From positions 1-64,000 of the IMG/VR virus record IMGVR_UViG_3300045988_131014: DNA of 64,000 nt; one strand, written 5' to 3'. How positions within the stretch are numbered: the stretch's first letter is position 1; each line of letters opens with the position of its first letter. This stretch comes from a virus. The notes beneath the pieces were generated by a model, which was given only the letters and a program-made list of their open reading frames with translations, ran no database searches and was not told the DNA's origin. Shown here one piece after another: positions 1,639 to 59,478 of this stretch. A program made the position numbers and the translations under genes.

Positions 1639-1937
1639 GAATTTGTGCCCTCACTTTCGTTGTAAATAACTTGTCTGTAAGCATCTTTAATTGAAATAAA
1701 GAAATCTCGTAATACATCTTTATCAATCGAACAATCAAGATTTGATGTTTCAAATTTTGGATTATATACTGTAAAATCTAATGTTCCATTATCCCTAGGT
1801 ACAAATAAAATTTCTACATTGTTATTTAACTGTAATGTAATTGAATCTATTTTCTCACCATTACTAGAAGTAACTTTTCGTACTTGTCCGACCTTTAACG
1901 GGGTTTGTTCAATTACAAGTCTATTTGCCATATACAT
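1635..1937 (-). CDS. hypothetical protein
   Basis: The track ORF 1635..2036 runs into tRNA-Met. The SD-preceded start (AAAGGAG..ATGTATATGGCA) gives a product of about 100 aa. Confidence 0.6.
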   Translation of the reverse strand: MYMANRLVIEQTPLKVGQVRKVTSSNGEKIDSITLQLNNNVEILFVPRDNGTLDFTVYNPKFETSNLDCSIDKDVLRDFFISIKDAYRQVIYNESEGTNS

Positions 1938-1979
1938 ACTCCTTTCTTTTATTTTTCGTTTTCCTTTTAATCGTTTAGT

Positions 1980-2051
1980 TGCGGAAACAGGACTCGAACC
2001 TGCATATTCTTGGTTATGAGCCAAGTGAGCTTCCATTACTCGTCATTCCGC
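1980..2051 (-). tRNA. tRNA-Met family (anticodon CAT), no encoded CCA
   Basis: Reverse strand GCGGAA../..TTCCGC acceptor, anticodon stem CTTGG/CCAAG with loop CTCATAA, T arm GCAGG-TTCGAGT-CCTGT. Confidence 0.8.
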
Positions 2052-3050
2052 TATGATAATAGGAGAGGAGCGACCTCTCCATATTATATGTAGATTGGTA
2101 AGATCTACTGCCGATTGATTACCAGTCAACCGACAAAGAGAACATTGAAAATTCTCTGATATGTTACTTATATATTCTCCATATATTTTCAGTCTTCGGA
2201 GTAAAGACCAATTGATAAGGTTTCATATCTCTTACCAGTTAATTAAGGTTCTCATTAACGCAGAGAAGCACGAACATTTTCTCATTTCTGAAGGCTGAGA
2301 GAAACCGATGATCCGAGATGTTGGTAGGAGAGATATAGGTCTTACAATACTACATGAATAGCAAATGCCAAGATATGTTAATCGTCTACTAAGCCAAGAC
2401 CTCTCCATAACACCGCCAATGAGCAGTAAGCAGTGGGAAGTTTTAGACCATTCCAAAGGTCAATAATTTCGCAAACCGACCTTTATATTTATGTCACATA
2501 TCGGTCAGTGACAGCTCATTTGTAAAAAATGAACAATACCTAATATTATTCTGCTATGTTAGTTATACGATTTTTTCAGGCTTCGCAACCTCTACATAAT
2601 ACGATTTTGGTGAGATTCGTAACTCGATAATTAATGTAAAAGTCTGTCGATTTGTTGACAGACCGCCCTCACTTACTTTGGATGTGAGCAGCTTTGTTAT
2701 TCTGAATTGTTTAATTCATGATTCGTTCTATGTATTTATTCTCTACATTGTCGTCACCTTTTTATATATGCCTTTCGTGCCTGTTTATAAGGGCTTTATT
2801 GGGATAATACAGTGCTATCGGTCTGTTAGTCCGTCTGATTTTCACAGAGCCTTGGTGAGTGCGTAACTCAGAGCATTCGGCTTATAATTATTTATTCTCT
2901 GCTAAATGGAATATTTTGACATGAATTGTCGTAGATGATATAATACTTCATAAGGTGCTACTAAAAACGGTAGGACGGTTCTCTCCAATCTGGGAGTACA
3001 AGCCCAGTCTACATAGATGGTAATTGTGCCGTAGTTCAGAAAGGAGATTT
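2052..3050. ncRNA. About 1 kb non-coding, hairpin-rich region next to tRNA-Met (candidate large structured RNA(s))
   Basis: Only short, non-protein-like ORFs and a less AT-rich composition. Many stable hairpins, e.g. GGAGAGG-agcga-CCTCTCC at 2062 and GTCTGTC..GACAGAC at 2643. Reverse-strand AGAGAATAAA motifs at 2735 and 2891. Confidence 0.35.
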
Positions 3051-3055
3051 TGCAA

Positions 3056-3154
3056 ATGGTAACTTTGTCATACGAGGCATTGATTGCACTTGTCGCATTA
3101 TGCGGTGGTGCAGGATATATGCTCGGTAGAGATATACAAAAAGCAAAAAAGTAA
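3056..3154 (+). CDS. 32-aa hydrophobic peptide, type I toxin-like / holin-like small membrane peptide
   Basis: SD GAAAGGAG 9 nt upstream. MVTLSYEALIALVALCGGAGYMLGRDIQKAKK has one TM segment and a lysine tail, and is followed directly by a terminator. Confidence 0.45.
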   Translation: MVTLSYEALIALVALCGGAGYMLGRDIQKAKK

Positions 3155-3190
3155 TCGTCCACTGCCAATGGAATAACGATTACTTTTGCT
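3151..3190 (+). terminator. Rho-independent terminator
   Basis: GTAATCGT..ACGATTAC stem followed by TTTTGCTT. Confidence 0.6.
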
Positions 3191-3390
3191 TAGTCAAAAT
3201 AATTTATTAATTTCAGAGCAACCGTCTTGCTTCACGGTGGCATCTTTTTTGAATTATCTTTAATTCCTTTGTATTGTAACACATAAAACTGTGTGGTGCA
3301 AGAGGGAAGTTGATGAAGTGTTAGACGAAAGCTTTATCGGCATCTTCAGTATCTTCACGAATTACATACATCTGAGTGGTTTCGGAATGA

Positions 3391-4437
3391 TTATTTAGTC
3401 TCTTCGTCAGCAACATCAGAATTTTTACTTCTTAAAGCATTGATTTTGTTCATAACTTCTGCTTTAGTTTGTTTCCTGCAATAGAACTCCCTAGTGGTTT
3501 CAGTCGAACGGTGATTGGCAAGCTCGGCTGCTAATGCTAAATCACCAGTTTCTTCATATACAAGATTTAGCCTAGTCTTACGCTGGCAATGAGGTCTATA
3601 GTCAGAAATTCCAATAATTTCGCCATATTTCTTCATTCTATCTCTAATTGCACTGTCACCCATAGGTTTATATTCTCCATTGTATTTTGTAATTAACAAT
3701 GAATCACATTCCAAGTGGTCATAATCATTCTTTCGCATTTCAAGCCATTCTTGAATAAGTTCTTTTGCAACATCCCCAAAAACCACCTGTGTACGGTATC
3801 CTTCCTTCTCCCTTATATCTACGAACATGTTATTCTCTAAATCAAGTTTAGATAGTTGCAACCTTAACAACGCACCAATTCTATTTGCTGAGTCAAAACT
3901 TACCTCAAATAAAATTTGATCCTGAATTGAATACTTATCATTTTCAGATAATTCTCTACGGATTGTCTGAACTTGTTCTTCTGTAAGGAAGTAAGAGTTC
4001 AAAATATGTTCCTCATTAGCTTTCTTCATTCTATCAAGTTTACCGTCAAAAGGATGATACTTAACGAAACCACGCTTCATAGACCAAATATAGAATGAAC
4101 TAACAGCAGAGATTTTCATGTTGATAATCTTTTTATGATTCAGAAGTGTTTCTTGACAGAACATAATATAGTTCTCCATAATATCAACGGCATTCTCCAT
4201 AAACTCATCTGAATATAAATCTAAATCACCATAGTTTTCGCCTAACCACATAAGAAAATGACGAAATAATCCTTCATATCTTTTATATGTAGTGTCTTTA
4301 ACATCCTGATTTTTAATAATATTTGATTGTAGATATTTCTTATATTTCTTCAAGTTATCAGGATTTATGAATTTCTCCTTATCCTTGGTAAAATATTTTA
4401 CCCTTGTTACATGTGCCACTAAATCACTTCCTTTCAT
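3391..4437 (-). CDS. tyrosine recombinase / phage integrase family
   Basis: C-terminal catalytic signature RPHCQRKT (HxxR) and HRSTETTREFY (His..Tyr); N-terminal SAM-like core-binding region. Confidence 0.85.
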   Translation of the reverse strand: MKGSDLVAHVTRVKYFTKDKEKFINPDNLKKYKKYLQSNIIKNQDVKDTTYKRYEGLFRHFLMWLGENYGDLDLYSDEFMENAVDIMENYIMFCQETLLNHKKIINMKISAVSSFYIWSMKRGFVKYHPFDGKLDRMKKANEEHILNSYFLTEEQVQTIRRELSENDKYSIQDQILFEVSFDSANRIGALLRLQLSKLDLENNMFVDIREKEGYRTQVVFGDVAKELIQEWLEMRKNDYDHLECDSLLITKYNGEYKPMGDSAIRDRMKKYGEIIGISDYRPHCQRKTRLNLVYEETGDLALAAELANHRSTETTREFYCRKQTKAEVMNKINALRSKNSDVADEETK

Positions 4438-4473: not shown

Positions 4474-5874
4474 CTAAGCGACATTTTCTATATTTAAAAA
4501 ATCAAATATTTCTTCCATAGTTTTTGTTCTTAAATCATCTCTTTTAATAATCTTATAATTTAAATGATTTTCCTTAAACAATTTTTCTTTATATCTTATC
4601 TTGAAAAAATATATCTGTTCTTCACGACTTCTAAGTTTAGAAAAATCATATGTATTTATAAAACCAGCCATTTCAACATACCAAACAGTTCCATCTGTAA
4701 GAGTAAATCTATAATCACAATTCATTTTCCCTTTATAATTAGTAGTGAAATCTACATAAGGTATATCTCTATCATATTTTATACCTTTAGATTTTAACCA
4801 TGTGGATATATCATATTCGCAACTACTGTCACATCTTTCACCATCATCCATATAAAACTCTGGTCTTCTACAATTCGGTTTAAATCCATAATGAATACAA
4901 GTTTCAGCCCAACTTCCAAATCTTTGTTGATAAACCCAAAATGAAGGTCTTCCAGTTTTATTAAAATCCTGTATTGTTGGGACTCTATCATATTCGTTAA
5001 CAAAATCCATAAATGCTTTATCTAACTCAGATTCTTTATATTCAGCTTTCTGATTTATTTTAAGACCAAGTGATTCTAAACAATTATTATATCCACCAAA
5101 ATATTTTTTGAAATAATTTTTAAGTTCAGTTCCATAATATTTATTTATATCACGTATTCCAGGAATTTTATTATATTTTTCAATGTATTCAAATATTATA
5201 TTCTGAAGGAATTCCGCATTATCATGCTTTAATACATAATCATCATTTTCATTTAAAACATAATTTTTTGCATATTCTTTTTCATCAAATCCACACTCAT
5301 GTAAAACATTTTTTCAACTACCAAATTTGTTATTATATGTCTTTCTATTTGGCATACCGTATTCTTTGCCATGAGTATCAATAAATTTAGCACTTGGGAT
5401 AAACCCATTTTCACTTACAAAATTTTTGACTGCTTCAATTAACTCTTCCTTAGAATATGAATGACCTCTATATGTACCAGTTTCTTCAAATCCTAATTCC
5501 TTGTTCATTTTATTAAAACTGCCAAAATAATATAGTATGTCACTTTTTTTAACCTGTTTATTATTTTCAAAATCAGAAAGTTTAATGTTTCTTCCCAATT
5601 GTTCTCTTAATTTAATTGCATATTCACATACTTGTTCTTTAGTAGGACGTTCTCTATAATATGCTTCTTCTCCAAGATATTTTAGAAAATCTGAAAACGT
5701 ACTTATATTCAAATCATCTGGTGCATTTCCAGGATACCAACTCCAACATTTTAATCCCATAAATCCATACTTTAACATTGTACAAGTAATTGTTTTTTCT
5801 AATTGTTTGCAAGCAGATTTATATTTTTCTACTTCGTCATACCATATTTTTTCATCGACTTTGTTTCTTCTCAT
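4474..5874 (-). CDS. homing-endonuclease-like protein with four FGSW-type repeats and a C-terminal nuclease-like domain, interrupted by one in-frame TGA (5314..5316)
   Basis: Track ORFs 5314..5874 and 4474..5010 are in the same frame. The 303 nt between them has no stop. The TGA falls at the Trp position of the repeat (FGS*KNVLHECGF vs FGSWAETCIHYGF). Confidence 0.7.
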
Positions 5875-6182
5875 AAATTTTTCCTACACTTTCCCCTACA
5901 CATACAATAAAAATAGAACAGTAGGAGAGGTGTGTAGGTTGCCACATATACTTGGTAGCTACTCCAAGTATCTACTGTTCCATAAATCCCACAATCAGCT
6001 ATGACACCAATCATGAGCACATATATTTATTCTCTGTTTCCATATAAAATTCGTTGCCGATTTAACATCTCCCAATCCGTATATAAAAACATTGAAAAGT
6101 CCTTCCACTTGGTAATGCTCCAAGCCGATCCGAAGACGACAGATTTACAGTCTGCCCCACATCTTTAGTGGTCTATGAGAGG

Positions 6183-8637: not shown

Positions 8638-8949
8638 TTAAAAAATCCCACCAGAACGTTTTCTGCCAGGATTGTAATACATTTGTTTACTTTTATTCTG
8701 TTTCACTTTGATATACTCACGAATCTTCCTAATATAATTTTCATCATAGCTCAAACGAATATGCGACTCCAAATAATAACACCCACAACGAGTAGGAATT
8801 TTATTAGATAACACATTATCTATAAGCTTATATGATGGATTAAGATTTGAGAGATGAGTATGTTTTTCTGTATCTTCTTGTCTACAGATACGGTAGCCAT
8901 TTTCAGTCTTGTCAATATAAAATCCTTTATACTCAATTCGATTTTTCAT
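8638..8949 (-). CDS. hypothetical protein
   Basis: 103-aa ORF, same-strand operon packing. Confidence 0.6.
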   Translation of the reverse strand: MKNRIEYKGFYIDKTENGYRICRQEDTEKHTHLSNLNPSYKLIDNVLSNKIPTRCGCYYLESHIRLSYDENYIRKIREYIKVKQNKSKQMYYNPGRKRSGGIF

Positions 8950-8958
8950 AAGCAGAAC

Positions 8959-9123
8959 CTACTTGACGTATTTATCTTCAATGTAACGCTTTCCACCACA
9001 AGTCTTGTAATATCCAATATGTTCGCCTCTGCGATCTACATATCCTCGTCTTGTGTTTCTAATTACACCTTCGGATAATAATTTTTCAATTTCATTTTTT
9101 GAAATGTACTTAATAATTTTCAC
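8959..9123 (-). CDS. hypothetical small protein (GTG start)
   Basis: 54-codon ORF VKIIKYISKNEIEKLLSEGVIRNTRRGYVDRRGEH.. fills the gap between the tRNA and gene 8638..8949; weak SD. Confidence 0.4.
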   Translation of the reverse strand: MKIIKYISKNEIEKLLSEGVIRNTRRGYVDRRGEHIGYYKTCGGKRYIEDKYVK

Positions 9124-9161
9124 TTCTTTCTTGATTTATTTCCTACAAAGTATGATAGTAG

Positions 9162-9236
9162 TTGGAAATGTAGGATTTGAACCCACGACCTCCTGAACCC
9201 AAATCAGGCGTTCTAACTAAACTGAACTAATTCCCA
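9162..9236 (-). tRNA. second, divergent tRNA-Pro (anticodon TGG), no encoded CCA
   Basis: Reverse strand TGGGAAT/ATTTCCA acceptor, D arm TAGTTCAGTTTAGTTAGAAC, anticodon stem CCTGA/TCAGG with loop TTTGGGT, T arm GTGGG-TTCAAAT-CCTAC. Confidence 0.8.
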
Positions 9237-10069
9237 AAATAAAAAATCCCATACCGAAGTATGAGATCCTTGCTTAATATGAGCTGAGATATTTGACTCA
9301 ATACACTAACATCTACTATGGTTGGACACAGTTTATCACACAAGCGATTAACTTGTAGTTAGCAACAACACCGATTTTGACATAATCGGCAAACTCTTAC
9401 CACAAAGTATTATAGATTTTCTTTCTGCACATTCTTCCTTGCGAGATTCATAGGTTGCAGCCTATTAGAGTTGTACGTACTTGTACTTTCTCATATAACA
9501 CCTTGCGAGTGCTATATGTCACCATATTACAGGTGAATAAGTTGTTTTTCTCTTTGCGGTCGCACACACTTTTGCTGTTTTGTAATTTTCTTTTAAATAT
9601 TTTTACCTAAAATAATTTGATTTCTTTCAAAAGTATGTACTTATTATGGACGATGAGGTGTACATTTGATCATCCGTACCTTTTGAGTACAGCCCAATCA
9701 TCACCATCCTACTCGGATTGCGATCTCCTTGCTTTTTGATTCCATCCCTGTTTTTCAACTTAAGAGATATTACCAAAATCCTATCAGCGGTTATACTTGC
9801 GATATTCCCACCAATAGTACACAAATCATACCCACATTTCTGCGTTACTACAGTGCCTATTTCAAGACACCCACCAATCAACCATATTCGCCAACAGTTG
9901 TCCTTGAATAGAAGGTTGGGCGTAGATTTTATGTGTTTTCCGTTAAACTGTATTTCACAGTCGCAGCCTTATAATACGATAAGAACCACTTTATACATGT
10001 CGCCATGCTTATTTTTGAGATTTAACATCTCCTGATCCGAAACCAACCAGTCCTACAAAAGTAGAAAAG
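9237..10069. ncRNA. About 830 nt non-coding spacer between tRNA-Pro and tRNA-Asn (candidate large structured RNA)
   Basis: No protein-like ORF in six frames; composition differs from the coding parts; multiple hairpins; ends with a conserved 19-mer also found at 6061. Confidence 0.35.
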
Positions 10070-10142
10070 CTCTTCCAGTAAGACTCGAACTTACGACTTT
10101 CGCATTAACAGTGCGATGCTCTACCAACTGAGCTATAAGAGA
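10070..10142 (-). tRNA. tRNA-Asn (anticodon GTT), no encoded CCA
   Basis: Reverse strand D arm TAGCTCAGTTGGTAGAGCA, anticodon stem TCGCA/TGCGA with loop CTGTTAA, T arm GTAAG-TTCGAGT-CTTAC; acceptor has a C4-A69 mismatch. Confidence 0.8.
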
Positions 10143-10679
10143 TTAAAAGAATAATCGGCAACCATACTACAAGAATTGTAGCACAGTCACCGACACATAT
10201 AAGAAGAGGAGTACAATATGAATATGTACCAATCTTAGAAATGATTTTTAGAATTGTTCTGTTTGAAAACGCCTTCGAATCGTTCCCCATAGGTTTGATT
10301 CCTATATATCTTCCACAGAAATGCATGGTACAGTCTCGCTTGATGTACTTAACTGGTTTTATCACACATGCACAAGTTTTTCATATGGCATCACATCAAC
10401 TAACTTATAGCCATATGTTAGACGAACTTTATACTATTATATTCTCTGTTTTATCAGCCAAGAAAAGCTGATTTCATTCTAAATCTGCAATGCCACTCGA
10501 AAGAGTAGCAGAGCAGACATACAAAGATTGTCGGTTTGTTTCTTCCATGACAATCGTTTTTGTATCATATTTTTGTAAATATTTCACTATATCTACATTT
10601 AAGAAAAACGAATTTTTTTTAAAAATGTGCAAAAAAGCCTTATAAATCAATGGTTTTAGCGAATGAGTTTTTCGAACAT

Positions 10680-11456
10680 TTATGCGTTTCTCAAGGTTTT
10701 CATACGTTCTTTTGCCTTATTTTTATCTATTTCCTTTGCACATTTTTCACAATATAACTTTGGTCTTCCAGTCTTTGTTATTCTTATTTTTCTTCCACAA
10801 CCAGAATTTGCACACTGCTTATAACCTTTTTTAAAATTCCCTATGTACTGATTACCAATATTCTCAAATTGAGTTACCTTATAAGCAATATCATCATCAG
10901 TGTCTCCTAAATCTATTTTGATATTAAGATTATTCACCTTTTTCCCAAAATGAATATAACCATTACTATATAACTCATGCAATAATTCATTCTTTTTATC
11001 AGATGAGAGAGTAACATTGGCAAGTTTAAATACTTCTGAAAGACCTTTTGAGTCTTTTTTATTTATCCATCCTTCACTATTCATATATCTTGCAATAGCA
11101 AATAGTGTAAACATAAATTTCTTTTGGCGATCATTTGGAAGAGACTCCACGACTTTTAATTCTTTTTCATAGATAGGAACATACTCAAGTTCCCTAAAGA
11201 GATTTTTTGATTCTGAATCATATAAATCAGTACATGTCTTTTTGATTTTATTGGCATATCTATATTCCTGATATCCTTCAATATTGAATTCAAGCATCTT
11301 TGCTTTGACTGTATCAATTAGAATATTTGGATCTTTACCTCTATCAAAATAATACTTAGCAATCAATGTTATCAAATATCCATTCGATATATTGTCTGGT
11401 TTATTACCAGACACTAATATCTCTCTAATATATTCTTTTTCATTCAGTATATACAA
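10680..11456 (-). CDS. hypothetical protein with C-terminal zinc ribbon
   Basis: 258-aa ORF overlapping the 852-aa gene by 17 nt; C-terminal CANSGC..YCEKC. Confidence 0.65.
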   Translation of the reverse strand: MYILNEKEYIREILVSGNKPDNISNGYLITLIAKYYFDRGKDPNILIDTVKAKMLEFNIEGYQEYRYANKIKKTCTDLYDSESKNLFRELEYVPIYEKELKVVESLPNDRQKKFMFTLFAIARYMNSEGWINKKDSKGLSEVFKLANVTLSSDKKNELLHELYSNGYIHFGKKVNNLNIKIDLGDTDDDIAYKVTQFENIGNQYIGNFKKGYKQCANSGCGRKIRITKTGRPKLYCEKCAKEIDKNKAKERMKTLRNA

Positions 11457-13998
11457 CTTCTTCCTCCATTTCTTCTAAACGCTTAATAATTAGTTCTCCA
11501 ATACAATCCCAACAAAACTGCCTATTACCTTTATATCCATAAGTCATATCAAGAATGATATTCATACGTTCATCATCATTTGGACATATTTCTTCGGCTT
11601 TCTTCTTAAACATTTCAACCATACTTGCACGTTGATAATATTTGTCGAATTCGTCCTGCTTATCAAAGATATCAGTTCTATTTAACTGTATTCCTTTTTC
11701 TTTTACCTGTTTCTTTTTATATTCTTTAATACATTCACAATAATATTGTTCAAGTTCTCGCAGAGCTTGTCTGTGTTCTTCAGTACAACGTCTTTTTACT
11801 TTTAGTATATTATAATCAAATGAAGAGTCCTTATGTAGCTGAGACTTATATCCGTCTAACTGACTTTCAACATATTTGCAAATTTGGTTCATAGAACAAT
11901 TTCCTGTACCAACTGGCATTTTTCTTTCGTACCAAAATAGAAAATCTTCTTGTTCTTTTGTAAGACTATCTTTGTTATACAAATCCTTGATAGAACATTT
12001 GTAGATAGCATAGCACTTAGCATTACTTTCTTTGATATACTGTTTATATTGTCTTTTAGTCTCATCATAAACATAAATCATAAAGTATGGCTTTCTGTAT
12101 GCGCAAAGCGATTGCAAATATCTATTCTCTCCGCAAGCACCTAAATTGTACCAACTACTTTCCATTGGTTTTGCAATGATTCCCTTAATTTTGTCCAACT
12201 CATTTTGTTGATAGAGCTGACCACATTCTATTCTATATTCTAATTCTTTATATTCAGATGAATCTTTCTCAAAATGAGATTGAACTTCCATCATAGATGT
12301 GACATAATTAGTGATTGTTCCAACTTGATTTCCCATACCTGCTTTATTTGTTTTTTTAACAGCAGCTTCAGTAACAACAATTTTTTCTGCATTTCGCTGA
12401 ACACATTCGATAGCAGGTAAATATCTATAACGTCTTTTCATAACTGGATTATTAGTAGAAAAGTTCAGATCCGAGTCCCAATCTTCCCCATTCTCAGCCA
12501 TACAAAATGAATCCCAACCGTTTATAATCATGATAGTATTCATATATTGATACCAATACTGACATTCATCCGAATTATTGATATTACACATTCGAATATT
12601 ATTATGACTTGTCATTGGGCTTCTAAAGAGTACAATTTCATCTTCATTTTTATCAATCCAAAATTTTGAATAACATTCATTTGCTTTTAATAAACCTGTA
12701 ACTTCCAACCCACAAAGAGATTGCATAAGAGCAAATGGATCGCCACTTGCAATCTGATAGTTACCTTTTACAAATAATTTACCAATTTTCGCATCATTCA
12801 TTTTTTTCTTGATATATCTATGTACAGAGTCGATTATATATGGATCTCCCAACATATATTCGCTTGTATATAAAGCACGTTGCCATGAATTTACATCAGT
12901 ATTTTCGTTAATACCAAGAAATTTAATAGTAGAAGAGTAGTCACCACACATAGCATCTTTTAAATAGTTGATTGTTGGTGCGCACAATTCCTCAACATCT
13001 TCGTCTGTAAATTCATAAGACTGAAGATATTGGTAATTCAATTCTCTCTGTTCTTCAAGAACATGCGGTGAAATTTTTGTTACAGAAAATCCGTATCCAC
13101 ATTCCTTATATGCATTCACATATTGCTCAATATTATCATACGCTCCCCATAATTTAAGAGAAGACTCTGTGACAATCATTTCACATTGACGAATATCTTG
13201 CATGTTTCCCCAAATATCTTCAATCATATAATTACCATTATTGTATTTTTCAATAAATTCATAAATAGGGAACGGATAGAGCATTCCTTTGAGCCATGCG
13301 TTTCTCAAGCACACACCGCCAGGAATATAATCAAGACCTAAAGATTCAGCTACTCGCTGCATATATTGTATAGTACAAAGATTAAAACCGTCAGATACAT
13401 TGTTTTCAAGAGCTTTATCTTTAATAATTTCTCTTGTCGGTTCTTTTGAATCGCCACCATCATCAAGTGATATAACATCTGCAAAATATTGTGTAATACA
13501 ATCTTTTACAACCAAAATTCCATGTGGATCACAAATCGGTTGTGATGCAGAACATGTTAATGCTTTGTAAGCTTCGTATTTTGCAGGAACTAATTTAGTA
13601 TCTGGATTTCTCTTGCATTCACATAATTCATTTAATTTGTCAATGTACTGTGAATTGCAGAAGAGAAGAGTATTATTTTTTAATCCACCAGTAGTTCCGA
13701 CAAAGCGTTTATAATTAACACCATTTATGATAACACCTTTTTTACCAGTCGCTCTTGCAAAATCAGATTTTTTATCAACAACTACCTGCATAAATATCTT
13801 TGAAAAATCAATACTCCAAATAGGTTTTTCTAAAATCTTATTTGCCATTATGCGGAATTCTTGGGCTTCAAACAGTGATATGAGTTCCTGATATTTAAAA
13901 GCCTCTTCTTTGGTAATCTGTAAATCCCAATTAGAATACTTTAGTTTATTTGTTCCAATTTTAAAAATCTCATATTGAGGTACGCTAATACCAGCCAT
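11440..13998 (-). CDS. candidate single-subunit two-barrel RNA polymerase (YonO / RdRp-like)
   Basis: 852 aa. FRSPMTSH (residues 458-465) followed about 40 aa later by DWDSD (codons at 12469..12483). This mirrors beta-prime RAPTLH..NADFDGD and eukaryotic RdRp RNPCLHPGD..DLDGD. Confidence 0.55.
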   Translation of the reverse strand: MAGISVPQYEIFKIGTNKLKYSNWDLQITKEEAFKYQELISLFEAQEFRIMANKILEKPIWSIDFSKIFMQVVVDKKSDFARATGKKGVIINGVNYKRFVGTTGGLKNNTLLFCNSQYIDKLNELCECKRNPDTKLVPAKYEAYKALTCSASQPICDPHGILVVKDCITQYFADVISLDDGGDSKEPTREIIKDKALENNVSDGFNLCTIQYMQRVAESLGLDYIPGGVCLRNAWLKGMLYPFPIYEFIEKYNNGNYMIEDIWGNMQDIRQCEMIVTESSLKLWGAYDNIEQYVNAYKECGYGFSVTKISPHVLEEQRELNYQYLQSYEFTDEDVEELCAPTINYLKDAMCGDYSSTIKFLGINENTDVNSWQRALYTSEYMLGDPYIIDSVHRYIKKKMNDAKIGKLFVKGNYQIASGDPFALMQSLCGLEVTGLLKANECYSKFWIDKNEDEIVLFRSPMTSHNNIRMCNINNSDECQYWYQYMNTIMIINGWDSFCMAENGEDWDSDLNFSTNNPVMKRRYRYLPAIECVQRNAEKIVVTEAAVKKTNKAGMGNQVGTITNYVTSMMEVQSHFEKDSSEYKELEYRIECGQLYQQNELDKIKGIIAKPMESSWYNLGACGENRYLQSLCAYRKPYFMIYVYDETKRQYKQYIKESNAKCYAIYKCSIKDLYNKDSLTKEQEDFLFWYERKMPVGTGNCSMNQICKYVESQLDGYKSQLHKDSSFDYNILKVKRRCTEEHRQALRELEQYYCECIKEYKKKQVKEKGIQLNRTDIFDKQDEFDKYYQRASMVEMFKKKAEEICPNDDERMNIILDMTYGYKGNRQFCWDCIGELIIKRLEEMEEEVVYTE

Positions 13999-17335: not shown

Positions 17336-17617
17336 TTGAGAAGTGTAAATAGAGCAGATTCTATTGATATAAAATATAATATTTCTGATCAGTATATTGA
17401 TAATGGTTGGATATATAGAGATATTGTTTTTACTTCACCTATTACTAAATCTGCAAAATATTCTGCGTTATGTTATAATAGTAGTGGAGAATTAACGAGA
17501 ATAGTTACTGGTTATGTATATGTCCCTGCTAATGAAAAAGTAAAAAAGAAAGATGGATATAATTTGAATTTTAAAGATAAATATGATATCCAAAAAATAA
17601 ATATATATTTCTATTGA
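17336..17617 (+). CDS. hypothetical protein (TTG start, same frame as 17126..17329)
   Basis: 93-aa ORF two codons after the in-frame TAA of the previous ORF; no SD. Confidence 0.45.
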   Translation: MRSVNRADSIDIKYNISDQYIDNGWIYRDIVFTSPITKSAKYSALCYNSSGELTRIVTGYVYVPANEKVKKKDGYNLNFKDKYDIQKINIYFY

Positions 17618-17634
17618 TCAAGTATTGGTTTATT

Positions 17635-17666
17635 GGACTATGGCTTTGGCTGTAGTCCTTTTTTAT
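17635..17666 (+). terminator. Rho-independent terminator
   Basis: GGACTA..TAGTCC stem followed by TTTTTTATT. Confidence 0.7.
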
Positions 17667-17727
17667 TGCTGTTTTATATATGGATATCTCTATTTAAAAG
17701 ATGATTTGTGCGAACAGTTTTAATATA

Positions 17728-17737
17728 CCCCCCCCCC
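17728..17737 (+). repeat. C10 homopolymer
   Basis: ATACCCCCCCCCCAAT in an otherwise AT-rich intergenic region. Confidence 0.9.
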
Positions 17738-17739
17738 AA

Positions 17740-18095
17740 TATGTTGAGATTCTTGAGTGTGACTTTTGATGGAAAAATCGTTATCGGTGAAAACGCTTAT
17801 ATATAAGGAAGAAAATAGGATTGTGGGTGTGATTTTAGTATGATGGGATTTTGAAATTTAGGGGTTGAAGTGAGTGAAATGCTTGATTTTAGTGGGTTTT
17901 AACGATATGGGATACGATAAGTGGTTTGAGATAGTAAAATTGGGATTTTGCTTGATTTTGTTGGAATTTAATGGATTGGAAAAGGATGGATTTTTAAGTT
18001 GGTGTGTGGATGAACCAGCTATAGGGTTTGCTGCATTTGCAGTCCTATTAGTTAGTTTTAACTACCCCCAGTTAGTCTATAACAATGGCTAATAG
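17740..18095 (+). other. C-depleted, G+T-rich repeat zone (candidate origin / packaging or genome-end region)
   Basis: Only about 4 C in roughly 200 nt (17810-18010). Repeated GGGATTTTG (17845, 17942) and TGATTTTAGT (17830, 17884), and many GGG runs. Confidence 0.4.
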
Positions 18096-20137: not shown

Positions 20138-20635
20138 ATGAAAAAGAAATTATTATCACTCATTCTTACAACAGCAACAATCCTTACATCCTACACGGTA
20201 GGCACAATGCAACCAACGCAAACAGTCAATGCCTCAACTCCAAAGCAGATCAGTATCACAAATGCAATTCCAATCTGTGACATTGCTGGTTATTTCTATG
20301 ACAAATATGGATATCTCTGCTTTGAGCTTGGCGATACAACAAAGCAGTTCAATAAGGCAGATGGATATTCATATTCAAAAATCTGTGAGAAACTTCCGCA
20401 TCTTAAAGATTTAGATGAAAACAAAACATATCCTTTGACAGCGAAAGTAACAAAGGTAAACAAAAAGAAAAACGTTGTCACTGTACAGGATTATAGCGGA
20501 AACAAATGGAAATTTCGTGGCTGTGAAGACTATGAAAATGGAGACGTAGTATCTATGCTCATAGATAGTAACGGAACAGAAAAGGTAACTGATGATATTA
20601 TTTTACAGGTCAGATACAGCGGTGCAGAGTGGTAA
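20138..20635 (+). CDS. secreted/exported hypothetical protein
   Basis: N-terminal signal-like MKKKLLSLILTTATILTSYTVG; SD AAAAGGAG upstream. Confidence 0.7.
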   Translation: MKKKLLSLILTTATILTSYTVGTMQPTQTVNASTPKQISITNAIPICDIAGYFYDKYGYLCFELGDTTKQFNKADGYSYSKICEKLPHLKDLDENKTYPLTAKVTKVNKKKNVVTVQDYSGNKWKFRGCEDYENGDVVSMLIDSNGTEKVTDDIILQVRYSGAEW

Positions 20636-20659
20636 ATAATAAGAAAGGAAGTAAAAACA

Positions 20660-20821
20660 ATGTCAGAGAAAGCAAAACAAATTCATGCAACCTATTGTAA
20701 TTATGAAGTAGCAAAGGCAAGCAAACCATCACGGATCTATTCAGTCCGAACAGAAACACGGAAACCACACGGAATCAAAACTCATAACATGAGTAGAGCG
20801 ATGTTAGCATCGCTTTTTTAG
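20660..20821 (+). CDS. hypothetical small protein
   Basis: 53-aa ORF with SD GAAAGGAAG upstream; ends inside a terminator. Confidence 0.5.
   Translation: MSEKAKQIHATYCNYEVAKASKPSRIYSVRTETRKPHGIKTHNMSRAMLASLF
20797..20820 (+). terminator. Rho-independent terminator
   Basis: AGCGATG-ttag-CATCGCT followed by TTTTT. Confidence 0.65.
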
Positions 20822-20845
20822 TACAAATAGAAGGAGGAAAGGCAA

Positions 20846-21022
20846 ATGATAATTATTATAAAGGATGGTTATGATGTTATTGATAATCGTCCAGAAGCAG
20901 AAATCGCACAATCAGAGCGTGATTATTTTGAGGAGCGTTACAATAGAGAGTTAAAACGCAAACTCGAAGCAAACAAGCATCCATTTGCAAAGAAATTATT
21001 ATCTGCATGTGGACTGTTATAG
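20846..21022 (+). CDS. hypothetical small protein
   Basis: 58-aa ORF with SD GAAGGAGGAAAGG upstream. Confidence 0.55.
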   Translation: MIIIIKDGYDVIDNRPEAEIAQSERDYFEERYNRELKRKLEANKHPFAKKLLSACGLL

Positions 21023-31469: not shown

Positions 31470-31739
31470 ATGGAAAGTTATAAAATTAGTTATAATGGTG
31501 ATACTCAAATTAAAAATATTCACCATATAGGTGTTGATTATAATGGAAATTATTATAGCGTGATTTTCGGAGAATATGTAAATGGAGGATTCTTTAGTAT
31601 TCCAAATTGGAATTGCGGTGGTGAGTTAGCTGGGTTTAGTGATGTGTTTTGGAATACAGAATCTATTCAGAAATCATTAAAAAGTAAAAGAGCAGCTAAA
31701 GCTATTGCAAAAGCGATATCAGATTATGTAAAGGAGTGA
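31470..31739 (+). CDS. hypothetical protein
   Basis: GGAAGGTGG SD upstream. Confidence 0.6.
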   Translation: MESYKISYNGDTQIKNIHHIGVDYNGNYYSVIFGEYVNGGFFSIPNWNCGGELAGFSDVFWNTESIQKSLKSKRAAKAIAKAISDYVKE

Positions 31740-31744
31740 TTGGT

Positions 31745-32725
31745 ATGTGTTATAAGATAGAAGTACAAAATAGAAACGCAGAGAAGCTTAATAGGAAGTT
31801 GGATGAGTTAAATCTTCCTATATATATGAGAAAATATTTCACTGTTAGAATAGAGAGTAAAGCAGGTGCGTTGAATTATCTTGGAGTTATTGTAGATTTA
31901 CTCAATTGGTTTATTGAAGAAAAACTTATTGACAAAACAAATATTTCAGATATTAAGCCATCGGATTTTACCGATATTATGGCAGAGGATATTACATTAT
32001 ATTTGAAAACTAAAGAACAGAATGGTATGTCACCAACCACATTGGAAACTAGAAAGCATATGATAAGTAGCTTTTGGGATTATATGAGTAGAGTAATGGG
32101 AGCTGAAATTAAAGATAAATTCTTCAAAGATGTAACATATAAAGGAATTCCATCTGGAAACAATTTAACTAAAAAACTTCCAACAGAAAAACAGCTTAAT
32201 GATATGGAAGAGAAAATAATGTGGAAAAAGGATATTCCAGTAAGAAATAGAAATATTGCTATCTTTCGTGTATTAAGAGGAACTGGAATAAGAGAATCTG
32301 AACTTGCTGGTTTAGATTTATCTGATTTACATTTGGACGAAGAAATGCCATATATTACTATTCTTGGTAAAGGTGTGTACCGAGAAATGCAAAATAGAGC
32401 AGTATATCTTAGCGGATCTGCTCTGAAAGCATTAAGAGAATGGTTAGAATACAGAAGCACCTTAGATAATATTGTAGATACGGAAGCTGTGTTTGTAAAT
32501 AAAAATGGCACACGTACAACGGAAAGAAATATCAAACAGATATTTGAGAATTATGGAAATGGTATTACTCCACATATGATGCGACATTATTATGCTAGTA
32601 TAATGAACAGAAATGGAAATCTTGCATTTGTTCAGCAGCAGTTGGGGCATAGTAGTGTAAATACAACAGTTAATAATTATGCAAACGGAGCTGTTGGTAT
32701 GAGAGAAAAATTAATGGAGATGTGA
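31745..32725 (+). CDS. tyrosine recombinase (XerC/XerD-like integrase)
   Basis: RGTGIRESEL (Arg I), HMMRHYYAS (HxxR), LGHSSVNTTVNNY (His..Tyr). Confidence 0.85.
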   Translation: MCYKIEVQNRNAEKLNRKLDELNLPIYMRKYFTVRIESKAGALNYLGVIVDLLNWFIEEKLIDKTNISDIKPSDFTDIMAEDITLYLKTKEQNGMSPTTLETRKHMISSFWDYMSRVMGAEIKDKFFKDVTYKGIPSGNNLTKKLPTEKQLNDMEEKIMWKKDIPVRNRNIAIFRVLRGTGIRESELAGLDLSDLHLDEEMPYITILGKGVYREMQNRAVYLSGSALKALREWLEYRSTLDNIVDTEAVFVNKNGTRTTERNIKQIFENYGNGITPHMMRHYYASIMNRNGNLAFVQQQLGHSSVNTTVNNYANGAVGMREKLMEM

Positions 32726-33666: not shown

Positions 33667-33961
33667 ATATAAGACTATCACAAAGAAAGAATTGACAGAA
33701 TTGCTTGATAAATATCCAGAAGATGAAGAGTTCAATATTATCCAAACTCAACTTGGAATGACAATTATTCCATTAGGAGGGCGGATAGCAAATAAGGTAG
33801 ACATTTTGGAAATTGCAAATGCAGCAAAAACAATGATTTATTCAGAGAATAAATTCATGTCACAAGTTGACATGCACAGTGTAAGGCAAGATATATTTAA
33901 TATAGAAAGAAATGGTGTAATGAATACGTTACTACTGCCGAGATTTTCTAATAAAGAATAA
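33659..33961 (+). CDS. hypothetical protein overlapping mazF 3' end (GTG start)
   Basis: GAAGGAGGG 6 nt upstream of the GTG; 8-nt overlap with mazF. Confidence 0.55.
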   Translation: MAEYKTITKKELTELLDKYPEDEEFNIIQTQLGMTIIPLGGRIANKVDILEIANAAKTMIYSENKFMSQVDMHSVRQDIFNIERNGVMNTLLLPRFSNKE

Positions 33962-34042
33962 TTTTAGTGTCCTGATTATAGGACACCATACATATTAAAA
34001 TGCAAACATGAACAAGAAATCGAACAAGTGTTTGTTTTATAC

Positions 34043-34071
34043 TTGACACAAACATATGTTTGGACTATGAT
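34043..34071 (+). promoter_or_regulatory. sigma-A type promoter with palindromic operator
   Basis: TTGACA - 17 nt - TATGAT; the spacer holds the perfect palindrome CAAACATATGTTTG. Confidence 0.7.
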
Positions 34072-34265
34072 TATTATTGTAAGAGAAATAATGGAAATAA
34101 AAACAGTCCGAATGACGTGGCTGCAACCACATATGTCATTCAGACTGTAACTCAACCAACCAAGATTAAGTCATTACATATTTTGGCATAATTTTCCAGT
34201 TATGTCAAGTTCAGTATGGCTAAAATCATAGCCTGTTTCCAATATTTTATCAAAATTTAATATTT

Positions 34266-34338
34266 AGGGCATTCGCCAAGCGGTAAGGCACAGGAATTTG
34301 ATTCCTGCATTACATCAGTTCGAATCTGATATGCCCTG
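34266..34338 (+). tRNA. tRNA-Gln (anticodon TTG), no encoded CCA
   Basis: AGGGCAT/ATGCCCT acceptor, D arm GCCAAGCGGTAAGGC, anticodon stem CAGGA/TCCTG with loop ATTTGAT, T arm ATCAG-TTCGAAT-CTGAT. Confidence 0.9.
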
Positions 34339-34494
34339 CTTTGTGACATTCCACCCGGTATGTTACAGAACGCAAGTGATTTCCTTGTAAGAGCAAAATG
34401 TGTAGTTGCTATAGTTCTACCATAGTCTAATCCACTAACGGATTACAAGCTGATACTATACTTCCTGATAAACTTGCGATAGTGTCAGCGACTT
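34339..34494 (+). ncRNA. 156-nt structured spacer between tRNA-Gln and tRNA-Met (tRNA-like or small RNA, unassigned)
   Basis: Stems TAATCC-actaac-GGATTA and GATACTAT..ATAGTGTC, plus terminal pairing GTTGCT../..AGCGAC. Confidence 0.3.
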
Positions 34495-34568
34495 GGATCA
34501 TTAGCACAATTGGTTAGTGCATTCGGCTCATAACCGAAAGGCTCAGAGTTCAAGTCTCTGATGATCCA
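34495..34568 (+). tRNA. tRNA-Met family (anticodon CAT), no encoded CCA
   Basis: GGATCAT/ATGATCC acceptor, D stem GCAC/GTGC, anticodon stem TTCGG/CCGAA with loop CTCATAA, T arm CAGAG-TTCAAGT-CTCTG. Confidence 0.9.
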
Positions 34569-34593
34569 TTGCTAAATCAAACAAAGAGAGGAG

Positions 34594-37799: not shown

Positions 37800-38084
37800 A
37801 TGCATTTGATTCGTCTGTATATGATGTGTTTGGATATTCTTGAAAAAGAGAGAATAATCACGTATAGAGAAGACGAACATGATTTACTTATGGATATTCG
37901 TAATGGTAAGTATTTGGATAGCAACGATCAGCCAATCCCAGAATTCTTTGAAATGGTAAATGATTATGAAAAGAGATTGGATTATGCGAAGAAGAACACA
38001 AATCTTCCTGATAATCCTAATTATAAGGCTATCAATGAATTTGTTGCTAGTGTAAATGAAAGGGTGGTAAAAGGTGAAATCTAA
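37800..38084 (+). pseudogene. C-terminal fragment of an RlaP-like (RNA-repair-associated) nucleotidyltransferase family protein
   Basis: KHSMHLIRLYMMCLDILEKERIITYRE resembles the family's C-terminal helix. The N-terminal catalytic half is absent. The SD-preceded ATG at 37703 is in another frame and stops at TGA 37760. Confidence 0.4.
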
Positions 38085-39426
38085 TCTAAAAATTGAAATT
38101 CCATATGGTGCAAATGAAATTATTCATACCTTACAGAATAATGGATATGAAGCTTTCTTAGTTGGAGGGTGCGTAAGAGACAGTATCCTTGGAAGACCAA
38201 TTCACGATTATGACATTACAACTTCTGCCACACCAGATGAAATGATGGAAGTATTCAAGGACAAGAGAATTATTGAAACTGGTTTGCAACATGGAACTAT
38301 TACCATTGTAATTGACGGTGATGGATATGAATGTACCACTTACAGAATTGACGGTAATTACTCAGATAGTCGTAGACCTGATAGTGTAACATTTACACGA
38401 AATCTTAAAGAAGATTTAAAGCGTAGAGATTTTACAATCAATGCAATGGCATATAATGATGAAGTTGGTCTTGTAGATCCGTTTAATGGTATGGAAGATA
38501 TTAAATACCACAAGATTAGATGTGTTGGTAGAGCAGAAGACAGATTTTCAGAAGATGCATTAAGAATTTTACGTGCTATTCGGTTTGCATCACAGTTGGG
38601 ATTTGTCCTTGAACCTGATACAGATTGGAATATCTCTAAAATGTATAAGAATTTGGAGAATATATCTATTGAAAGGATCAATAGTGAGTTCTGTAAAATT
38701 GCTGCATCGAGTGATTTCTGTGTACAAATGGTCTTATATCACGAAGTATTCTCATTGTTCATTCCTGAAATTAAAGACATGTTTGGCTTTCAACAGAATA
38801 ATCCATATCATATTTATGATGTATGGAATCATACAGTACATGCAATAGAATATTGTGAATCTGATGATTTAGTAACAAGATTAGCTGTGTTCTTTCATGA
38901 CATAGGAAAGCCACGTTGTTATCAAGATAGCGAGGATGGTATTAGACATTTCAAAGGTCATGGAAGAGTCAGTGCTGATATGACTGATAAAATAATGAAG
39001 CGATTAAGATTTGACAATGATACAAGAGAAAAGGTCGTTGAATTAGTCTATTATCATGATGCTACTTTTGAGGTGGGAAAGAAATATATCAAGAGATGGC
39101 TTAATAAAATTGGGGAAGAACAGTTCAGAAGGTTATTAAATGTTCGTAGAGCTGATATTAAAGCACAAGCAGACATTAATCAGGGAACAAGGTTACAGAA
39201 GATTGATAACATCGGATATATTTTAGAAGAAGTCTTACAGGATGATGAATGTTTTTCTCTAAAGGATTTAGCAGTTAATGGAAAGGATTTAATTACTATT
39301 GGATATAAGCCAGGAAAAGAAATTGGTGAGGTATTAAATAATCTGTTGGATTCAGTCATTAGTGGAGAATATATAAATGAGAAAGAAAAACTATTAGAAA
39401 TAGCAGAGAGAAGATTACATGGTTAA
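38074..39426 (+). CDS. cca: CCA-adding tRNA nucleotidyltransferase with HD domain
   Basis: GGCVRDSILGRPIHDYDITT, RRDFTINAMA, LRAIRFASQLGF, and HD motif FFHDIGKP. Confidence 0.9.
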   Translation: MKSNLKIEIPYGANEIIHTLQNNGYEAFLVGGCVRDSILGRPIHDYDITTSATPDEMMEVFKDKRIIETGLQHGTITIVIDGDGYECTTYRIDGNYSDSRRPDSVTFTRNLKEDLKRRDFTINAMAYNDEVGLVDPFNGMEDIKYHKIRCVGRAEDRFSEDALRILRAIRFASQLGFVLEPDTDWNISKMYKNLENISIERINSEFCKIAASSDFCVQMVLYHEVFSLFIPEIKDMFGFQQNNPYHIYDVWNHTVHAIEYCESDDLVTRLAVFFHDIGKPRCYQDSEDGIRHFKGHGRVSADMTDKIMKRLRFDNDTREKVVELVYYHDATFEVGKKYIKRWLNKIGEEQFRRLLNVRRADIKAQADINQGTRLQKIDNIGYILEEVLQDDECFSLKDLAVNGKDLITIGYKPGKEIGEVLNNLLDSVISGEYINEKEKLLEIAERRLHG

Positions 39427-59253: not shown

Positions 59254-59478
59254 ATGAGAGCATACAAATGTGATGTTTGTGGTAAGTATTGTGAAGATTG
59301 TTTTGAAATTAAGGATGATACATTTGATGTCTTCCCATCAGATTTCGTTGACAGAGGACAATATGATAAAAAAAAGGTGGAAGTACGAGATTTGTGTTCT
59401 GAATGTTATGTAGATATTAAAAATTATATTCATAACAAAGTATTCAATAGGTTTAAGAAAGAGGAAGAATCGAAGTAA
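59254..59478 (+). CDS. hypothetical zinc-ribbon protein
   Basis: GTGAGGTGAG upstream; CDVCGK..CSEC. Confidence 0.6.
   Translation: MRAYKCDVCGKYCEDCFEIKDDTFDVFPSDFVDRGQYDKKKVEVRDLCSECYVDIKNYIHNKVFNRFKKEEESK

Follow-up and report, generated by a model that had tools for sequence, protein, structure and literature searches.

Which kind of element occupies a long gene-free stretch beside a phage transfer RNA (tRNA) gene? The question is raised by positions 1 to 64,000 of the IMG/VR virus record IMGVR_UViG_3300045988_131014, a stretch of 64,000 nucleotides (nt) that is called the window below. Here 1.34 kb without a convincing protein gene lie between a tRNA-Met gene and the stop codon of an integrase gene (position 3391). 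The tRNA-Met (CAT) gene (1978..2052, minus strand; called by ARAGORN, 45.6 bits with the Rfam tRNA model) forms the downstream end of this non-coding island, and the gene of a tyrosine integrase (3391..4437, minus strand; Pfam PF00589 at 7.7e-20, PHROG integrase) is its upstream border. An initial annotation of positions 2052-3050 had proposed one large ornate RNA, possibly akin to ROOL or GOLLD. Our analysis points to a different answer. We consider it probable, with real room for doubt, that the region is a hyperplastic island of accessory small RNAs, which would be co-expressed with the phage tRNAs and assembled from cassettes that related phages exchange.

The stretch 2053-3050 is non-coding. 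Its longest stop-free run is 88 codons, which places it in the lowest 5% of the 1-kb tiles of the window (median 172). The gene-free stretch extends to 3390 and includes a single open reading frame (ORF) of 32 codons at 3056-3154. None of the ORFs of 33-74 amino acids (aa) listed for the region matches a Pfam or NCBIfam family. A gene hidden by a recoded stop had also been envisaged, and reading TGA, TAG or TAA as sense in 2053-3050 opens no gene. Alignments with relatives show no codon periodicity of substitutions and contain indels of 1, 2, 4, 5 and 20 nt. The first impression of about 1 kb without a protein-like ORF is therefore borne out. So is that of a less AT-rich composition: the G+C content is 0.371 compared to 0.323 for the window, a value equally high in only 2.9% of the 1-kb tiles (the top 3%). 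The description of the genome as otherwise packed gene to gene was overstated, since further ORF-poor 1-kb tiles start near 8751, 14251, 17501-18001, 20501-21001, 28251, 32501 and 33751. In the tiles starting at 14251, 17501-18001, 20501-21001 and 28251 the longest stop-free run is at most 90 codons; these tiles hold many tiny genes or more non-coding DNA.

Every hairpin stem named in the initial annotation can be located: GGAGAGG/CCTCTCC at 2062-2080, GTCTGTC/GACAGAC at 2641-2664, CTCAC/GTGAG at 2671-2691 and GTCTT..AAGAC at 2192-2208. The hairpin placed at 2189 had been assigned a UUCG-type loop; its loop has 7 nt and is not a UUCG tetraloop. Folded as a whole, the region shows a modest gain over shuffled sequences (20 shuffles per strand; z = -1.9 for the plus strand and -3.9 for the minus strand). 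No repeats of the region were found elsewhere in the window, and blastn and megablast searches against deposited phage genomes returned matches at the tRNA level only.

The organization of the region appears in its relatives. The integrase and the flanking 158-aa protein retrieved 121 loci (numbered with the prefix L) from IMG/VR contigs of 80-190 kb, mostly with 95-100% protein identity. Steps in blastn coverage along the window delimit about 12 modules (A to K and M), each 30-160 nt long. Presence/absence patterns were counted over 63 integrase-anchored loci, and coverage was counted over 115 loci. When 1900-3450 is compared with these loci by blastn, it matches in fragments that differ from one locus to the next. 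Modules are present, absent and recombined independently of each other in phages whose flanking proteins are 95-100% identical. At least 31 presence/absence patterns of the window modules occur among the 63 loci, and the complete set of modules is found in no locus. Past the integrase, the next tRNA or gene follows at a distance of between about 0.05 kb (tRNA-Pro, in L053) and more than 2.4 kb, and the downstream tRNA sets vary (Met; Gln; Asn-Asp-His; Asn-Asp-Glu-Trp; others). By this comparison the locus is a mosaic, whose cassettes may have been exchanged by recombination at short shared boxes.

Four of the modules, A, E, G and J, carry base pairing that the alignments indicate to be conserved on the minus strand. 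The structural test scored the percentage of alignment cells that are paired and the number of two-sided pairs compared to 500 shuffles, with shifted partners as controls. In these modules 96.9-99.3% of the cells are paired, and each has 3-5 two-sided pairs, a count reached in 0-10 of the 500 shuffles. Shifted-partner controls pair only 12-55% of the cells. G-U pairs allow a strand test: 96.9% of the module A cells pair on the minus strand versus 85.6% on the plus strand, and the values for module E are 99.3% versus 87.3%. The search for covariation among related phages that had been recommended at the outset thus detects compensatory changes within modules A, E, G and J, in helices that are all local.

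Followed along the minus strand towards the tRNA, the first of these is module J (2809-2881, minus strand). This structured RNA has a length of about 75 nt and folds into four or five short helices, with ACCGAUAGCA as a hairpin loop. In alignment A5, 96.9% of the cells are paired and there are 5 two-sided pairs, a number reached by 2 of the 500 shuffles. Its helices are recovered independently by RNAalifold. Covariance model R1 detects module J in 38 of 93 sources, with 97.3% of the cells paired over 27 distinct sequences. Modules I and J (together 2760..2881, minus strand) accompany each other in 11 of 12 loci. Module G (2638..2692, minus strand) consists of a hairpin (2665-2692) and, according to a terminator scan, an intrinsic terminator (GGUCUGUC..GACAGAC followed by UUUU, 2638-2664). 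Its alignment A7 of 17 sequences is 97.6% paired and includes many G-U pairs and 3 compensatory pairs, a number reached by 1 of the 500 shuffles. Module F (2529..2634, minus strand) is a spacer with imperfect direct repeats of 25 nt (2565-2589 and 2599-2623, 34 nt apart, family D4) and a CAGAATAATA box. It is covered by 1 of the 115 loci and is almost unique to this lineage.

Module E (2411..2521, minus strand), a further structured RNA, has about 110 nt and a hairpin loop UGACCGAUAU. Its fold is tentative and may include pseudoknots. In alignment A4 (17 distinct sequences, 94% mean identity) the hand-drawn model pairs 99.3% of the cells; 3 pairs show compensatory changes, and one helix has an A-U pair replaced by G-C in 7 sequences. 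The hairpin loops of modules E and J have GACCGAUA in common, which occurs nowhere else in the window. Similarly, GACCGATA is found in modules E and J only. Module A (2053..2162, minus strand) is the pre-tRNA leader and contains hairpins at 2137-2157, 2110-2134, 2090-2108 and 2062-2080, the last of which stops 9 nt short of the tRNA 5' end. Alignment A2 (17 distinct sequences) has 96.9% paired cells and 4 two-sided pairs, a count that none of the 500 shuffles reaches. In relatives, module A sits before tRNA-Met, -Lys, -Arg and -Gln.

Upstream of module A lies a leader element (modules C', C and B; 2173..2337, minus strand), which extends over about 155 nt after a box called D. It is predicted to contain hairpins at 2191-2209 and 2214-2236 and a helix of 10 bp. 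This helix is UACCAACAUCU/AGAUGUUCGUG in the window, and its position 5 is G or A among relatives. Applied to alignment A1 of the leader, RNAalifold draws 45 pairs, of which 1 has a two-sided change (covariation term -0.61); nearly all changes are one-sided, and these are compatible with pairing. In other leader variants an unrelated 5' segment (ACGGUCA/UGAUCGU) would, in our own reading, pair with the same 3' strand. Inside the leader lies the sequence that is retained most widely in the whole region. This C core, CGTGCTTCTCTGCGTTAATGAGAACC (2247..2272, minus strand), has 26 nt and forms the hairpin UUCUC-UGCGUUAAU-GAGAA, with a stem of 5 bp and a loop of 9 nt. A match at 2243-2273 covers about 100 of the 115 loci, and the core occurs as a single copy per contig in more than 117 IMG/VR contigs. 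It has at least 8 unrelated sequence types as upstream neighbours and at least 8 as downstream neighbours. The D box (2344..2371, minus strand) is a sigma70-like sequence, TTGGCA-16-TATTGT, with 9 of 12 consensus matches, located 99 nt upstream of the C core. It is present in 39 of the 63 loci; in relatives, 230-400 nt separate it from the first tRNA, which is downstream.

A 12-codon frame overlaps the C core (2237-2275, minus strand; MFVLLCVNENLN) and has a start and a stop in several variants (MIVLLCVNENH*, MIVLLYVNESH*). It is probably not translated, because its Shine-Dalgarno spacing is unusable and it is frameshifted in L049 and L089. In L034 (7040-7500) the module that follows the C core has the T-loop-like sequences CAGUUCGAAUCUG and GGUUCGUAU; it is also present in L039, L207 and L220, and ARAGORN calls no tRNA or transfer-messenger RNA (tmRNA) in it. 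The module of one relative carries UUCGAAU motifs of the T-loop-like kind. Within the modules of the window neither ARAGORN nor the Rfam tRNA model identified tRNA or tmRNA remnants. We also considered the C core or the D box as the sole promoter of the YonO-like RNA polymerase that this phage encodes (see below). The idea was attractive: there is one copy per genome, the orientation is right and SPbeta has a single YonO late promoter. It is weakened by the absence of the C core from 19 of the 63 loci, including L046-type genomes. In addition, neither the core nor its region resembles the gap or the start-site region of SPbeta, and Enterocloster phage PMBT24 lacks the core.

Boxes of another type are scattered between the modules. 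The two reverse-strand AGAGAATAAA motifs on which the initial annotation had remarked are located at 2735-2744 and 2891-2900 and are oriented towards the tRNA. Across the window they behave as a promoter-like signal upstream of genes. The motif AGAGAATAA has 28 coding-strand copies in the window, compared to 2-12 for composition-matched controls. Of these copies 46% are at most 60 nt upstream of an ORF start, against a background of 13%, usually 15-40 nt upstream of a separate Shine-Dalgarno site. The same applies to GGAGAATA (28 coding-strand copies, 13 of them at most 60 nt upstream of an ORF start). The motif is thus linked to gene starts, and its sequence context suggests that it is probably a phage-specific promoter or another gene-start signal. 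In the form (A/G)GAGAATAA(A/T/G)TA it stands 15-40 nt before the Shine-Dalgarno site of many genes, always on the strand of the gene (27102, 41542, 46645, 59782, 60414, 60775 and 61117 on the plus strand; 6026-6035 and 10438-10447 on the minus strand). Inside the island two such AGAGAATAAATA promoter-like boxes are present. P1 (2889..2900, minus strand) is directly upstream of module J and back to back with a plus-strand promoter; in most relatives its position is taken by GGAGAATAATTATA, at the same distance from module J. P2 (2733..2744, minus strand) is about 40 nt upstream of module G, and together they look like a small-RNA unit of about 95 nt. The GGAGAATATATAAG box (2167..2180, minus strand), itself a variant of the motif found upstream of genes, marks the junction of modules B and A and recurs at other junctions in relatives.

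Do any of these modules belong to known RNA classes? At the gathering thresholds, Rfam 15 identifies only seven tRNAs in the window. The scan proposed at the outset was carried out on 1900-3400, and even at E<=10 it finds tRNA alone, with no ROOL, GOLLD, raiA, group I or II intron or other family. ROOL (RF03087; gathering threshold 99.1 bits; an RNA of about 580 nt that has multistem junctions and pseudoknots) has no match in the window, nor in 1900-3400 at E<=10. GOLLD (RF02032; gathering threshold 150 bits, conserved 3' domain) has no match in the window, and a blastn search with the GOLLD of L053 also gave nothing. Drum (RF02958), skipping-rope (RF02924) and DUF3800-VIII (RF03075) are likewise not matched in the window. 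These negative results carry weight because the same search detects ROOL (277-286 bits) and GOLLD (206.4 bits; L053 7591-8045, the equivalent locus) in relatives. Judged by sequence, the modules of the window belong to no described family.

The surroundings are a different matter. A survey of the loci of 22 relatives with Rfam, with locus counts by blastn, indicates that this position is a tRNA/RNA hot-spot. Skipping-rope RNA lies 150 nt past the integrase stop in L029 and occurs in 7 of the 63 integrase-anchored loci (25 loci in all by blastn). Drum RNA, found in 19 loci, closely follows the C core in L089, and in L005 it precedes the tRNA. GOLLD is located in L053 between integrase/tRNA-Pro and tRNA-Asn, in a more distant lineage whose integrase is 85% identical and whose terminase gene lies downstream. 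In the tRNA island that lies upstream of the integrase, ROOL is present in L003, L027 and L048. The ROOL/GOLLD setting beside tRNAs to which the initial annotation had appealed was therefore apt. A second ORF-poor island of the window (8950-10680) surrounds tRNA-Pro (9161-9236) and tRNA-Asn (10069-10142) and has no Rfam match; the matching island of relatives, upstream of the integrase, carries ROOL (L003, L027, L048), skipping-rope (L058) or a GOLLD-like sequence (L038, blastn only). Further along, a second tyrosine integrase (31736-32725) is followed by an ORF-poor stretch with tRNA-Gln/tRNA-Met at 34266-34569 (plus strand), and 33750-34570 may be another small RNA/tRNA island.

These observations are consistent with the following scheme. 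On the minus strand, in the direction of tRNA-Met, P1 would drive module J (with module I), and P2 would drive module G up to its terminator. Spacer F and module E would follow. The D box would then open the leader of about 155 nt with the C-core hairpin, which continues into module A and tRNA-Met. The cassettes would be transcribed together with the tRNA, and short stable RNAs would be released by the terminator and by tRNA-processing cuts. Once released, they could act in trans as accessory RNAs during infection, a role they would share with the skipping-rope, drum and GOLLD RNAs that occupy the locus in relatives. Between phages the cassettes might pass by recombination at short shared boxes, as proposed for the PeSL motifs of T4-like phages (PMC4122927).

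Several points weigh against an island of accessory RNAs. The cassettes are dispensable, because none of the modules is common to all relatives; 19 of the 63 loci lack even the C core. All homologues come from one shallow phage lineage, with modules 75-100% identical, so that a small number of independent events may account for the compensatory changes. The alignments used for scoring also served for drawing the structures. The model of module E is tentative because RNAalifold favours a partly different nested fold. There is almost no two-sided covariation in the leader element, and no structure is supported for modules F, I and K. The -10 hexamer of the D box is weak and its promoter function is uncertain, since the first base of the hexamer is T, C or G among variants. 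The motif AGAGAATAA could be a processing or protein-binding site and not a promoter. Finally, the conserved hairpins could be purely cis-acting, as terminators or as processing and stability elements for the tRNA and late transcripts.

This last point leads to the principal rival, in which the region is a spacer with promoters, terminators and processing or stability hairpins that control tRNA-Met and the late genes, without any trans-acting RNA. It would be the counterpart of the late-operon leader of SPbeta. Module A agrees with such a role, as it abuts the tRNA and precedes tRNAs of different identity. The promoter-like boxes, the terminator and the fact that the modules are individually dispensable agree with it as well. 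In SPbeta, an ORF-free gap of 1.68 kb separates yonN (HU-like) from yonK at the head of the late operon, on the late-gene strand. The published YonO start site maps to about 60451 of the SPbeta record through the lysis-cluster coordinates of PMC8270828, which leaves a non-coding leader of about 1.3 kb past this site by coordinate mapping (PMC5467207; PMC8270828). The region of the window has no sequence similarity to the SPbeta gap, so that the parallel is positional only. Moreover, modules E and J are multi-helix structures with conserved loops (GACCGAUA in both) that exceed what a terminator or a cleavage site needs, and free-standing described RNA genes (skipping-rope, drum, GOLLD) are found at the same locus in relatives. 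We therefore regard the purely cis-acting spacer as rather unlikely. The gap of SPbeta itself contains a DUF3800-VIII RNA according to Rfam (47.5 bits; L259 7410-7475, about 59409-59474 of the record, minus strand), downstream of the mapped YonO start.

Much less probable is a role at the level of DNA, with the region serving either as attP, the attachment site of the phage, or as an array of the integron type in which the integrase swaps cassettes at hairpins that are its recombination sites. Such a role would suit the location directly downstream of a tyrosine integrase, the cassettes that vary in presence, absence and order, the short conserved cores between unrelated sequences, and hairpins more conserved in structure than in sequence. 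The attP version is refuted by an integrated relative, L253 (1-8050; 503-kb contig ENA ERZ14206940 NODE_1), whose integrase gene is 98.5% identical at the DNA level. There the host genes stop about 2 kb before the integrase, on its upstream side; the non-coding island lies inside the prophage, on the side opposite to the host junction, and the region therefore does not contain the site. As for the array, the G-U pairs make the stems of modules A and E strand-specific, which suits RNA or one DNA strand and not duplex sites, and no repeated attC-like unit is present at the cassette borders. On the host side, L253 carries genes for a pectinesterase, BioY, RpiB, a two-component system and a flavodoxin. 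A scan of the integrase protein against the GTDB species representatives gave no match.

The single large RNA of the initial annotation, spanning most of 2053-3050 in one fold and either ROOL/GOLLD-like or of a new class, is by now largely refuted, and we give it hardly any credence. Part of that proposal stands: the region is non-coding, it has conserved minus-strand structure and it lies in a ROOL/GOLLD neighbourhood. A length of about 1 kb, free of ORFs, rich in hairpins and adjoining a phage tRNA, the minus-strand folding z of -3.9, and the presence of GOLLD in the same locus of L053 and of ROOL near it in three relatives all speak for it. It can also be argued that GOLLD has a variable 5' part and sometimes embedded tRNAs (PMC12286853). 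What fails is the unity of the element. The ROOL and GOLLD models that give 206-286 bits in relatives find nothing here at E<=10. With at least 31 module patterns in the 63 loci and none complete, the unit is never conserved whole, which excludes a single large RNA dependent on every one of its domains. In addition, module F is nearly confined to this lineage, an intrinsic terminator and promoter-like boxes are internal to the mosaic of about 12 modules, every supported helix is confined to one module, and the right-hand 135 nt are part of a plus-strand cassette (see below).

Equally implausible are hidden small protein genes or a recoded gene, for which one may cite the ORFs of 33-74 aa and, in our own reading, the start and stop that the frame over the C core (MFVLLCVNENLN) retains in several variants: besides the lack of family matches, of recoding and of codon periodicity, the tolerated indels and the defects of the mini-ORF described above, the listed ORFs span module borders that are shuffled in relatives.

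A broader suggestion can also be made, which we offer tentatively as possible but short of probable. The locus would be a cassette-exchange platform in abundant human-gut SPbeta-like phages, on which RNAs of unrelated structure (GOLLD, skipping-rope, drum, J, G, E and the C-core leader) replace one another beside tRNAs. Were this true, the interchanging RNAs would share one role, which might be counter-defence or takeover linked to tRNAs or translation; the window would add four or five new RNA classes to this guild, and the locus would amount to a natural 'swap' experiment on what ROOL/GOLLD-type RNAs do. Among bacterial and phage RNAs without a known function, few are as well conserved as ROOL, GOLLD, drum and skipping-rope, whose known context is mainly phage tRNA islands. 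Here orphan RNA classes and unclassified modules share one position and appear interchangeable there. Their phages differ very little from each other, abound in human-gut metagenomes and are relatives of the genetically tractable SPbeta, which opens an experimental route through SPbeta-like phages. They also provide candidate new RNA motifs and a comparative handle, namely which cassette accompanies which tRNA set, host or defence repertoire. For annotation, the locus is a warning that a long ORF-free stretch beside a phage tRNA may be an array of small units and not one large RNA.

The right-hand end of the region belongs to a separate plus-strand element (2916-3290), a candidate type I toxin-antitoxin-like cassette found in about four related loci only. 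It starts with a sigma70 promoter, TTGACA-17-(TG)TATAAT (2916..2944, plus strand; 12 of 12 matches and an extended -10), which is invariant in the four loci carrying the cassette and, as module K, also precedes other cargo. The predicted mRNA, whose start is placed by the promoter, has a 5' untranslated region (UTR) of about 105 nt (2951..3055, plus strand) that is highly conserved even in the divergent L048. It is followed by the ORF of 32 codons, MVTLSYEALIALVALCGGAGYMLGRDIQKAKK (3056..3154, plus strand), with a Shine-Dalgarno sequence AAAGGAGA 7 nt upstream. The peptide has a hydrophobic helix and a basic tail and matches no Pfam, NCBIfam or PHROG family. In L075 the frame is kept, with synonymous and conservative changes; L048 has a different peptide of like character, MVSFSDLFTYTLVIIAIITLVSNRKEK, and in L026 the peptide is shortened by a 4-nt insertion. 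A bidirectional intrinsic terminator (3147..3187, inverted repeat I6), with a perfect stem of 12 bp and T-runs on both sides, ends the unit. On the other strand a consensus scan identified a promoter-like box GTTACA-16-GATAAT (3253-3280, 9 of 12), which, with its surroundings, is invariant in all four cassette loci including L048. It would direct an antisense RNA of about 110 nt (3135..3280 with the box, minus strand; transcript ends predicted) overlapping the 3' end of the toxin ORF and the terminator. The cassette thus has the small hydrophobic peptide gene with its own promoter that is expected of type I systems, and the 32-aa peptide is a candidate toxin. Systems of the bsrG/SR4, yonT/SR6 and txpA/RatA type are carried by SPbeta-type prophages (PMC5848175, PMC3834814, PMC6562991). 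The cassette resembles these Bacillus pairs in its small hydrophobic peptide with a basic tail, its strong promoter and its long conserved 5' UTR, and the predicted convergent antisense RNA, about 100 nt long and overlapping the toxin mRNA at its 3' end, would be a further likeness. It differs from them in a peptide without a sequence family match, and both its toxicity and its antisense RNA are predictions.

The phage is a temperate SPbeta-like phage of the human gut. The assignment to the SPbeta type follows from its neighbouring genes, which match Pfam YonG, YonJ, YonD and YonB, and from its polymerase. An ORF of 852 aa (11440-13998, minus strand) is a homologue of the YonO-type single-chain RNA polymerase by tblastn, 49% identical to proteins of Enterocloster phages and 35% to phage c-st; Bacillus SPbeta-like phages are also similar. 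Relatives have variants of 928 and 956 aa, and a sequence search with the YonO-like protein against the PDB gave no match. An identical integrase is present on many human-gut metagenome contigs, one of which (ERR912143 k127_14835) is 100% identical to the window over 7 kb. The island is situated between the integrase and the packaging and late genes, with YonG and terminase downstream. Two ORFs with HNH_repeat matches (4474-5010 and 5314-5874, minus strand; 178 and 186 aa) replace a single ORF of 466 aa of most relatives and look like a split or decaying homing-endonuclease-like gene beside the integrase; one relative has a pRha-family gene in their place. The window also carries genes for a CCA-adding tRNA nucleotidyltransferase (38074-39426), a DHH phosphoesterase (39419-40339), an RNA ligase (49010-50329) and Ku (197-865). 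These end-handling genes suggest that the phage repairs damage to tRNA or RNA, which may bear on its variable tRNA/RNA islands.

Among known systems, the locus belongs with the non-coding RNAs of phage tRNA islands, and several of its motifs are themselves new. The yonN-yonK gap of SPbeta is found in the same type of phage and is also an ORF-free gap between an HU-like gene and packaging genes. Here, however, integrase and HNH genes separate the gap from the HU gene, and the gap is followed by tRNAs; in the close relative PMBT24 a gap of this kind is absent. GOLLD and ROOL are phage and prophage non-coding RNAs near tRNA islands, of unknown function (PMC12286853, PMC5737381). GOLLD occupies the same integrase-tRNA position in L053, and ROOL a neighbouring tRNA island of this phage group. 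Each of them is one RNA of 580-900 nt with long-range pairing, whereas the modules of the window have 60-160 nt, assort independently and are partly separated by a terminator; the window matches neither model.

According to Weinberg et al. (2017), the drum, skipping-rope and DUF3800 motifs are short and well conserved, have unrelated structures, often with 3' terminators, and seem to serve one unknown purpose (PMC5737381). Both drum and skipping-rope occupy the island in relatives, a DUF3800-VIII RNA is in the SPbeta gap, and module G ends with a terminator. Their models match no module of the window, and our literature search on the drum and skipping-rope motifs found no functional work. In the tRNA cluster of T4, species 1 and 2 (rnaC/rnaD) are short stable RNAs other than tRNAs, co-transcribed and processed with the tRNAs, and their function is unknown. 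Shuffling of this kind is not known for the T4 cluster, and no sequence relation is to be expected.

The proposed mode of assembly has a parallel in the PeSL promoter/stem-loop cassettes from the hyperplastic regions of T4-like phages. These short composite regulatory motifs are repeated where variable segments meet, and recombination at them has been proposed to shuffle the modules (PMC2839356, PMC4122927). In the island, the J, H and B/A borders have RGAGAATA boxes, the G border has terminators, and module K is a portable sigma70 promoter. The box is found at some module borders only, in which the island differs from the PeSL arrangement. The cargo differs as well: PeSL cassettes swap ORFs, while the cargo swapped here is non-coding RNA and tRNA.

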